A program made the translations under genes and the position numbers. 64,000 bases of DNA from the NCBI GenBank assembly GCA_036387135.1, contig DASVUH010000007.1, positions 2,105 to 66,104 on the forward strand, written 5' to 3'. Below the pieces are notes generated by a model, which did not search any database, was not told the origin of the DNA, and worked only from the letters and a program-made list of their open reading frames with translations. How positions within the stretch are numbered: position 1 is the first letter of the stretch; each line of letters starts with the position of its first letter. Origin of the DNA: Pyrinomonadaceae bacterium (lineage in GTDB: Bacteria > Acidobacteriota > Blastocatellia > Pyrinomonadales > Pyrinomonadaceae). Shown here piece by piece: positions 7,207 through 8,132 of the stretch.

Positions 7207-8132
7207 ACGGAGTTTTAATCATAGACAAACCCGAAGGCTTAACGTCGCACGATGTCGTTGGCAGAGCGCGGCGCATTTTAAAAACGCGCAGCGTCGGACA
7301 CACAGGCACGCTCGACCCGTTTGCGACCGGAGTTCTGGTCGTTTTAATCGGCAAAGCGACCAGACTCGCGCAATTTCTCGACAAAGCCGAAAAAGAATAT
7401 CTGGCGACAATCCAATTCGGATATTCAACCGACACGGGCGACAGAACTGGATTGCGGATTGCGGATTGCGGATTGCGGATTGAAGAAATCGCGGCGCGAA
7501 TAACTGCGAGCAATGTTGAAAAAGCCTTAGTCAAGTTTCGCGGAGAAACGCTGCAAACTCCGCCGATGTATTCGGCAAAAAAAGTCGGCGGGAAAAAACT
7601 TTACGAATTGGCTAGAAAAGGCGTGGAAATCGAACGCCAGCCGGTCAAAATCAAAATCTCGGAATTGGAAATTGTCGAAAATTCTGAAAATCAATCCGCA
7701 ATCCGCAATCCGCAATCCGCAATTGTGAGGGTTGTGTGTTCAGCCGGAACTTACATCCGCGTTTTGGCGGAAGACATTGGAAAAGAATTGGAAACGGGCG
7801 CGCATCTGGCGGAGCTTCGCCGGACGCGAGCCGGAAGTTTCGATTTACGCCAAGCCGTGACGCTTGAAGAGCTTGAGAATCTTGCGATTGAAAATCGAAT
7901 CGGAGAAATTAAAATTTCTCCAAACGATGCTCTCGGACATTTTCCGTTCGTTGTTTTAGATGAACTCGGAATAGCCCGGACGCTCAACGGAATGAAAACG
8001 AAAGTTTCCTCAAATTTTAACGACGCAGAGTTTGTTCGTTTGTGCGATGAGAGCGGAAACCTTGTTGCCGTCGGCGTTTTCGATGAACGGGAACAAGTTA
8101 TCCAACCGCGAATTGTTTTCGGCGCGGCTTAA
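7203..8132 (+). CDS. truB: tRNA pseudouridine(55) synthase TruB. The reading frame contains two in-frame heptamer-repeat insertions (features 7449..7482 and 7692..7725).
   Basis: TTG start. Canonical TruB N-terminus [31 protein letters not shown] with the catalytic Asp. [27 protein letters not shown] motif. C-terminal PUA-like region. Confidence 0.9.
   Translation: [309 protein letters not shown]
7449..7482. repeat. (GGATTGC)n heptanucleotide tandem repeat, ~4.9 copies, in-frame inside truB (encodes [11 protein letters not shown])
   Basis: Perfect tandem copies read directly from the sequence. Confidence 0.9.
7692..7725. repeat. (CAATCCG)n heptanucleotide tandem repeat, the inverted-orientation copy of the repeat at 7449..7482, in-frame inside truB (encodes [11 protein letters not shown])
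   Basis: Reverse complement of GGATTGC repeated ~4.9 times. Lies 210 bp downstream of the first array. Confidence 0.9.

Follow-up and report, generated by a model that had tools for sequence, protein, structure and literature searches.

Opposed heptanucleotide arrays in two loops of the TruB pseudouridine synthase of a Pyrinomonadaceae bacterium

We analysed a 64,000-nucleotide (nt) stretch of contig DASVUH010000007.1 (GenBank assembly GCA_036387135.1, positions 2,105 to 66,104) from a Pyrinomonadaceae bacterium, hereafter the window. Its truB gene, for tRNA pseudouridine-55 synthase, carries two perfect tandem heptanucleotide arrays in frame, the second of which is the reverse complement of the first. 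This pair is one case of 7- and 8-nt repeats that have colonised the same two TruB loops across the Pyrinomonadaceae. We consider it probable (roughly 60%) that the arrays are near-neutral simple sequence repeats (SSRs) of the long-unit class, lying in frame in two insertion-tolerant loops that bracket the thumb of the enzyme. An initial annotation, made from the letters of the window alone, had treated the pair as a singular feature of truB, a view that does not hold against the occurrence of such repeats throughout the lineage.

Two arrays in two loops of TruB

Both arrays are identified by Tandem Repeats Finder at period 7 with 100% matches, and an inverted-repeat search recovers the two complementary arms with 207 nt between them (Table 1). 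The arms start 240 nt apart. The initial annotation had correctly described heptamer arrays of opposite orientation, both in frame, except that it placed the end of the second array at 7725, which is 2 nt too far: bases 7724-7725 read 'tg' rather than 'cc', so the array ends at 7723. A 14-mer of the repeat, GGATTGCGGATTGC, has nine matches in the window when up to two mismatches are allowed, compared to 1.06 expected, and none of 100 shuffles reaches nine. Perfect arrays of at least three copies occur in the window at period 7 (four arrays) and period 8 (one array) and at no other period, and 40 dinucleotide shuffles of the window contained no perfect array at either period, as opposed to the five observed.

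The same two truB arrays, with the same units and copy number, are present in L163, an independent metagenome contig. The arm segments align without a difference between L163 and the window, and the codons on either side of them differ by no more than one base. The peptides at both sites are also identical to those of the window in HEX8564163.1, an NCBI protein from a metagenome-assembled genome. Since both arrays recur in L163 and their peptides in HEX8564163.1, the array pair is a genuine feature and not an artefact of assembly.

The open reading frame (ORF) that contains both arrays is uninterrupted. Its product matches the Pfam family TruB_N (PF01509) over the entire length of the model (1-149 of 149, E=2.5e-50), together with TruB_C_2, and the TruB chains 1SGV, 1R3F and 1K8W in the PDB at E=4e-50 to 3e-45. 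A JGI protein that is 100% identical to the product is annotated as tRNA pseudouridine55 synthase. The motif GHTGTLDP, which contains the catalytic Asp of TruB, is invariant in the alignment of orthologues, the window protein included.

Compared to E. coli TruB (1R3F and 1K8W), the protein has seven extra residues at site 1, between DADGQ and IVEERPV, and eight at site 2, where they sit at the tip of a β-hairpin, between HEGNELE and LEIHCSKGT. An AlphaFold model of the protein, with a mean predicted local distance difference test (pLDDT) score of 80, places residues 160-168 below a pLDDT of 50, between the strands 148-157 and 172-179. The block of residues 81-90 at site 1, which follows strand 64-72, has a mean pLDDT of 60, a moderate confidence. 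From the alignment and the model, both arrays are loop insertions. No part of the orthologue alignment is more conserved than the spacer between the arms, which has many invariant columns from F112 to L155 and aligns without gaps to the TruBs of E. coli and M. tuberculosis.

These results agree with much of what the initial annotation had proposed. The codons between the arms, which it had described as normal TruB, are 69 conserved codons that include the thumb region, and the arrays are not the ends of an inserted element, as the spacer is native TruB. In the alignment with the TruB chains 1R3F and 1K8W, both insertion points appear as gaps in those chains. The proposal of two independent loop insertions survives in part: the loops are supported by the E. 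coli alignment and by the AlphaFold model, but 'independent' misses a complementary pair of unit families shared across a clade and the habitual inverted pairing of these repeats, both of which are described below.

The TTG start of truB overlaps the stop codon of the upstream esterase gene (TTGA, 7203-7206). The usual context of truB is nusA-infB-rbfA-truB-rpsO. Here, the neighbours are instead the esterase gene and a gene for a tetratricopeptide repeat (TPR) protein, and relatives have the same arrangement.

Repeats at the same two sites across the family

Two sets of orthologues were examined, the best 120 matches (57-100% identity) and 116 more from a second search around the protein P0101. 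The loci of the closest relatives were taken individually; scans of the genome and metagenome contigs cover relatives at up to 67% identity among the matches listed. Peptides with a period of seven residues occupy both sites in almost all of the first 120 orthologues, and nearly all of the 116 added ones carry the degenerate forms xRSAECGxRNEE and xxRTPHSAx. Ordinary bacterial TruBs have segments of 21-23 residues at these positions, without periodicity.

The periodic peptides are diverse. They include LRIADCG, VRSAECG, SPKSKVQ, ELRITNY, IQNSKFK and RQKAKGK at site 1, and QSAIRNP, HSALRTP, NNEQRTT, TQNSKLK, KMENGKW, DQRPKTK and LETWNLK at site 2. Each decodes to one heptanucleotide read in three phases, and about 20 unit families are represented. 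The arrays that encode IQNSKFK and ELRITNY are not tied to one site: some species have them at site 1, others at site 2. Octamers can also code for these loops, with GACGCGGA at site 1 of the related locus L164 and peptides of the TETQRHTE type in a more distant clade. Site 2 of P0066, an orthologue of 392 residues that is otherwise a normal TruB, holds ~85 residues of SALNAQD/SALSTQx, which correspond to roughly 36 heptamer units. At the other end, the arms of the P0101 clade are mostly decayed at the DNA level. All ~236 orthologues are in frame, with no out-of-frame allele among them.

Array turnover and reassortment among close relatives

The loci of close relatives show how quickly the content of the two sites changes. 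In L161, site 1 consists of GGAGTGC and site 2 of CACTCCG, so that the same position is changed in every unit of both arms compared to the window. This turnover of whole arrays, from GGATTGC to GGAGTGC or the reverse, accompanies a nucleotide divergence of about 7-10%. L162 differs from the window at site 1 by one base in one unit (GGATTGC to AGATTGC), and its site 2 has 1.6 units, compared to 4.6. The difference of three units equals 21 nt, or exactly seven residues. As the length of the unit is not a multiple of three, only changes of three units maintain the frame inside a coding sequence. Length variants of 14 residues within the 90% identity clusters were also considered, and are due to start-codon calls and not to changes in the arrays.

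In other relatives, the two arms no longer match. L165 has GGAATGC at site 1 and the complement of GGATTGC at site 2, and L169 has GGAGCGC and the complement of GGAGTGC; in both, each arm is internally homogeneous, while the units of one arm differ from those of the other at a single position. L168 combines GGAGTGC at site 1 with an AACAACG array at site 2, and L164 combines an octamer array with an AACAACG array. Among the proteins, P0239, which belongs to the 90% cluster of the window protein, has GGATTGC at site 1 and CACTCCG at site 2. P0242 and P0243, from the 90% cluster of P0005 (itself 81% identical to the window protein), have GGATTGC and a mixture of CACTCCG and CATTCCG. The stem is mismatched or missing altogether even in relatives at 86-90% identity. 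Since proteins at least 90% identical to that of the window pair GGATTGC with a mismatched second arm, the perfect 33-base pair (bp) match of the window is a contingent state and not a conserved requirement. Every combination of first-arm and second-arm types is found among close relatives; thus, the arms are reassorted by recombination or change independently of each other.

These truB genes are also recombination mosaics. L163 shares 95% nucleotide identity with the window up to residue 175 and 66% thereafter, with a sharp breakpoint. For L164, the identity to the window is 96% in the 5' part, falls to 70% in the middle and returns to 93% in the 3' part.

The 70% identity of L164 is confined to the region between the two arrays, as if a cassette consisting of the arrays and the thumb had been exchanged.

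The predicted stem and the orientation of array pairs

The initial annotation had suggested that the arms could form a stem of ~34 bp in the mRNA, and such a stem is indeed predicted. Folding of the truB mRNA gives a long-range stem of 33-34 bp, with a minimum free energy of -129.9 kcal/mol compared to -91.6 kcal/mol for shuffled sequences (z = -6.6). Besides the window, L163, L161 and L169 are also predicted to form a long-range stem, with z values from -9.8 to -4.5 over the four sequences. The predicted stem is weaker in L165 and L162, and none is predicted in L168, L164 and L166. The mismatches in imperfect arm pairs comprise 8 of the G.U type, 8 of the C.A type and 7 others; in this small sample, they show no preference for G.U on the sense strand and lend no support to selection at the RNA level.

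A further suggestion, that the structure could promote inversion or deletion of the intervening segment, found no support. Inversion of the segment in silico is destructive, with a stop after 106 residues, and no inverted or deleted truB allele is present among ~400 orthologues and loci.

Inverted pairing is the normal arrangement for these repeats. In a census of 7- and 8-nt arrays across Pyrinomonadaceae loci, with a partner sought within 600 nt, 20 of the 47 arrays outside truB have an inverted partner and one has a direct partner. Loci from other phyla give a similar picture (inverted partners for 9 of 34 arrays, a direct partner for one). Within truB, 51 of 67 arrays are without an inverted partner. 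The intergenic inverted pairs have spacers of 6-118 nt, shorter than the 207 nt of truB. A large clade of orthologues shares a complementary pair of unit families, in which GGANNGC at site 1 is matched by its complement at site 2, and this family pair is ancient.

Short-loop inverted pairs of heptamers are also seen near truB in unrelated phyla (other Acidobacteriota, Longimicrobium, Anaerolineae, Geobacteraceae and Thermoanaerobaculaceae), at L017 5060-5174, L019 1353-1546, L024 5569-5659, L026 1620-1680 and L070 1159-1247. Several of them lie about 1.3-1.9 kb upstream of truB. At L145 2927-2997, an intergenic hairpin directly upstream of the truB start consists of (TGCGGAT)x4.1 and an inverted copy, the unit of the window arrays.

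The same class of repeats outside truB

Table 1. Coordinates of truB, its arrays and the other repeat arrays of the window.
Feature	Position	Strand	Description
truB (tRNA pseudouridine-55 synthase)	7203-8132	+	309 codons, TTG start; Pfam and PDB matches
Array 1	7449-7482	+	perfect (GGATTGC)x4.9, read in all three phases, G83-I93
Array 2	7692-7723	+	perfect (CAATCCG)x4.6, reverse complement of array 1, Q164-A173 (Q164-SAIRNPQSA-173)
Inverted repeat	7451-7723	.	arms 7451-7483 and 7691-7723, 33 nt, 100% complementary
Spacer	7484-7690	+	207 nt, 69 codons, native TruB residues 95-163, includes the thumb-loop region
Intergenic octamer pair	17250-17337	.	CGCAGAGA and its complement, separated by 44 nt, at the 3' end of a uracil-DNA-glycosylase (UDG)-family gene
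CoaBC linker arrays	19027-19097	-	(GGTCTTC)x4.3 and (TTCTCCTC)x4.5, in frame, read as EEEKRRRGEEEKISEDRRPKTED; gene 18374-19669
Squalene/phytoene synthase array	23475-23507	+	AACAACG-type, in frame
M16 peptidase array	36027-36067	+	AACAACG-type, 5.9 copies, in frame
Intergenic (AATTACG)x4.6	38985-39016		no inverted partner; many relatives use the unit to encode ELRITNY at truB site 1
Intergenic GTTCTCA-type inverted pair	41866-41952	.	between convergent genes
Exosortase-DUF3485 fusion array	58922-58955		degenerate CTCCTCTT octamer, linker between the EpsH and DUF3485 domains; gene 58002-59591
Intergenic pair	63946-64000	.	(AACGATG)x4.6 from the Wzz/GNVR stop codon, 8 nt, then an inverted copy; truncated by the window edge

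In 616 kb of Pyrinomonadaceae loci, 84 of 161 arrays have period 7 and 30 have period 8. Units such as AACAACG, AATTACG, GAAGACC and the CACAGAGA octamers are found again at unrelated loci and in other species. The window itself contains in-frame arrays in four genes besides truB (Table 1). In CoaBC, the arrays lie in the linker between the Pfam domains Flavoprotein (residues 18-189) and DFP (residues 215-398), and on the coding strand an octamer array (GAAGAGGA, 4.5 copies) is followed by a heptamer array (GAAGACC, 4.3 copies). In L163 the corresponding linker has a decayed copy, and in L165 it carries another heptamer-coded peptide, SPKFKVQSSK, which is shorter by 9 residues. AACAACG/AACGACG arrays sit in two unrelated enzymes of the window and belong to the unit family that occupies truB site 2 in L164, L166 and L168. 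The array at 58922 has the same unit and strand as the one at 19062, and is read as the hydrophobic peptide FSPFFLFSSSF. The three intergenic inverted pairs (17250/17317, 41866/41920 and 63946/63986) are all located at the 3' ends of genes, a terminator-like position. The first of these, a hairpin between two UDG genes, is built from CGCAGAGA in the window and L163 and from CACAGAGA in L161, in both arms.

Viral contigs contain (GGATTGC)x3 in 42 stretches, with GC contents of 39-72%, compared to 9 and 17 for permuted controls and 11 for AACAACG. The idea that GGATTGC is a special cosmopolitan unit was discarded, as the enrichment is only 2.5-4.5 fold and arrays of any heptamer are common. In the viral contigs that were chosen for a GGATTGC array (L170-L211), heptamer arrays are extremely abundant: 397 kb contain 177 arrays of period 7, and many of these have ~4.6 copies (~32 nt). 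The distribution of array lengths suggests a preference for ~32 nt, which we do not claim since many of the loci were selected for at least three units.

Origin and persistence of the array pair

In the explanation that we favour, replication slippage would alter the length of the arrays, and the coding frame would spare only changes that keep it, so that the surviving steps are three units long (21 nt, seven residues). The survivors would also be limited to units that are free of stops in an orientation compatible with a loop. Units could turn over by two routes, either by contraction to one or two units followed by mutation and re-expansion, or by homologous recombination with diverged alleles. 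The old complementary family pair probably began as a hairpin-capable inverted pair, through copying between the arms. The arms would since then have evolved largely independently, with the perfect 33-bp match of the window recently homogenised. Such a history would leave a strong long-range stem in the truB mRNA or single-stranded DNA, two hypervariable surface loops and a low rate of null alleles arising through frameshift or inversion, and would not require a dedicated function of the arrays.

Several observations weigh against this explanation. Slippage alone leaves the unit length of 7 unexplained, as well as the recurrence of units between genes and between species, and we infer slippage and neutrality rather than observe them. 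The partner census found no pair of arrays in direct orientation in truB. Exact complementarity of the arms occurs with at least five units: GGATTGC, GGAGTGC (in the two lineages of P0002 and P0101), GGATCGC (L003), AGTCTCA (L091) and AAGTTCC (P0053 and P0068). The arms may thus still be coupled to some extent, a minor possibility that would involve selection or templating. The complementary family pair also persists across orthologues that are only 55-70% identical, and this persistence could reflect a function.

The alternative that fares best, although we consider it unlikely, is that the arms are still being homogenised, by intramolecular template switching (quasipalindrome correction) or by RecA-dependent gene conversion, and evolve in concert without a function. 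It would readily account for the difference between the window and L161, which affects the same position in every unit of both arms, and for the orthologous intergenic hairpin, in which both arms likewise differ between L161 and the other two loci. The general bias towards inverted over direct pairs (20 to 1) is also consistent with it. Template switching at quasipalindromes is known, and the 33-nt length of the truB arms is near the minimum for RecA recombination. However, the arms of L165 and L169 are each homogeneous and yet differ from one another, and P0239 and P0242 pair GGATTGC with a second arm that does not match, within 90% clusters. Matched states can also be imported by recombinant mosaics, and the 207-nt spacer is far longer than those of the intergenic inverted pairs.

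Less likely again, in our judgement, is that selection keeps the arrays complementary for the sake of a functional duplex in the truB mRNA or single-stranded DNA, for example a ~33-bp target of RNase III or a stability switch that depends on translation. The high predicted stability of the stem, in the window and in three relatives, would fit such a role. Exact complementarity with several different units could be read as a series of compensatory states, truB contains inverted but no direct pairs, and the pairing is old at the family level. Against this, relatives at 86-90% identity have no match (P0239, P0242, L168 and L164), most orthologues have unrelated arrays at the two sites, the mismatches are not biased towards G.U, and the arms of the P0101 clade have mostly decayed. 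In addition, co-translational occupancy of the first arm would normally be expected to block the pairing.

We give still less credence to an active templated process in the Blastocatellia/Pyrinomonadaceae that seeds 7- and 8-nt arrays into permissive sites, typically as complementary pairs, with the truB pair as a maintained long-range duplex around the thumb segment that acts as a regulatory or diversity-generating cassette. If this were the case, the permissive sites would be protein loops, interdomain linkers and the 3' ends of genes.

Pure coincidence, in which each loop took its array independently from a small set of tolerated units present genome-wide, and the two happened to receive one unit in opposite orientations, is very unlikely. 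The repertoire of ~20 families is indeed limited and is shared between the sites, as in the case of IQNSKFK and ELRITNY, the arms assort almost freely in close relatives, and direct pairs, being prone to deletion, may have been removed by selection. Nevertheless, at least two unrelated families form complementary pairs in truB (GGANNGC, and AAGTYYC/AGTCTCA), inverted partners are habitual outside truB (20 of 47 arrays), and two random heptamer necklaces are complementary with a probability of only ~4e-4.

Finally, the reading of the arrays as terminal inverted repeats of a mobile or invertible element (a miniature inverted-repeat transposable element, a hairpin-forming doublet of repetitive extragenic palindromes (REPs), known as a REPIN, or an inverton), or as a phase-variation switch of truB, is hardly credible: inverted repeats do flank a discrete segment, their unit length is not a multiple of three, and the relative L161 has a Y1 transposase of the REP-associated tyrosine transposase (RAYT) type beside truB, but the DNA between the arms is conserved TruB, the flanks (...AGAACT and TGTGAG...) show no target-site duplication, inversion leads to a premature stop and is seen in no orthologue, no recombinase gene is adjacent to truB in the window (its neighbours there, as in relatives, are the esterase and the TPR protein), all ~236 orthologues are in frame, and the RAYT of L161 is flanked by its own, different REPs, the gene and the REPs both being missing from the window. 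A mobile element and an inverton were rejected on these grounds. REPs and REPINs were rejected because the arms are tandem repeats whose inverted matches exist only between the arrays and never within an arm, around a spacer of conserved coding sequence, and a link to the RAYT because the repeats at its flanks are GAAGCCCGCGCGTCAGCAAGGGCGGA and not heptamers.

The RAYT-type gene of L161 (9182-10000) lies between the esterase gene and truB and is flanked by inverted REPs (GAAGCCCGCGCGTCAGCAAGGGCGGA). A remnant of it is present in L163, and neither the gene nor the REP is found in the window.

The presence of heptanucleotide SSRs in truB implies that SSRs with non-triplet units can live stably in housekeeping proteins, provided that they are located in tolerant loops and change in steps of three units. 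As the same two loops are refilled repeatedly from a shared pool, truB offers a convenient natural marker of how heptamer repeats arise, turn over and recombine. The bias towards inverted over direct pairs, which extends to other phyla and is reported for Xanthomonas, poses the question of why these repeats are heptamers and why they come as pairs that can form hairpins. For annotation, the loop peptides of such TruBs should be regarded as filler derived from repeats and not as functional motifs.

Comparison with known repeat systems

Heptanucleotide SSRs and inverted pairs of heptamer arrays are already known, whereas the in-frame refilling of loops in the TruB family was not found described. 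A literature search on heptamer repeats in Acidobacteria returned no description, and none was found of in-frame arrays that repeatedly fill one pair of loops in a housekeeping enzyme throughout a bacterial family. Over-representation of heptamer SSRs has been described (PMC4692102, PMC4679880), and both papers refer to the long SSRs with units of 5-11 nt, including a heptanucleotide class, of Mrazek et al. 2007. The truB arrays resemble this class, as presented there, in that they consist of perfect head-to-tail 7-nt units in about 4-5 copies, far above chance, in that period 7 is strongly favoured over 6, 8 and 9, and in that length and sequence vary between close relatives. They differ in being in frame within a housekeeping coding sequence and translated in three phases, and in occupying the same two loops across a bacterial family with many different units.

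The closest counterpart of the pair itself is found in Xanthomonas, which has 70-75 inverted pairs of GGGAATC arrays per genome (Rehm et al. 2015, PMC4692102). There too, the same heptamer is repeated on opposite strands at a short distance, ~4 units are preferred, and the type of arrangement is kept between species while the length varies. The Xanthomonas arrays are G-rich and quadruplex-forming, mostly intergenic and under-represented in coding regions. In contrast, the truB unit GGATTGC has only GG and no G3 tract, and the truB arrays lie inside an ORF, 207 nt apart, with a conserved coding spacer. The three other pairs of the window are intergenic and near the ends of genes. The short tandemly repeated repetitive (STRR) heptamers of the cyanobacteria Calothrix and Nostoc, as they are summarised in PMC4692102, are also dispersed families of tandem heptanucleotides shared within a lineage, although they belong to another phylum, have other units and are described in that summary as intergenic.

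Phase-variable contingency loci share with truB an SSR in the coding sequence whose unit is not a multiple of three, such that gaining or losing a single unit would turn the gene off. In truB, a housekeeping gene, there are no out-of-frame alleles among the ~236 orthologues, and the length difference that was observed is one of three units. Template-switch mutagenesis at quasipalindromes and gene conversion between inverted repeats are established in E. coli. Processes of this kind would explain how one arm can be copied from the other and how both arms can change together, but the known cases have short loops, whereas the spacer of truB is 207 nt long and the arms of its relatives often evolve separately.

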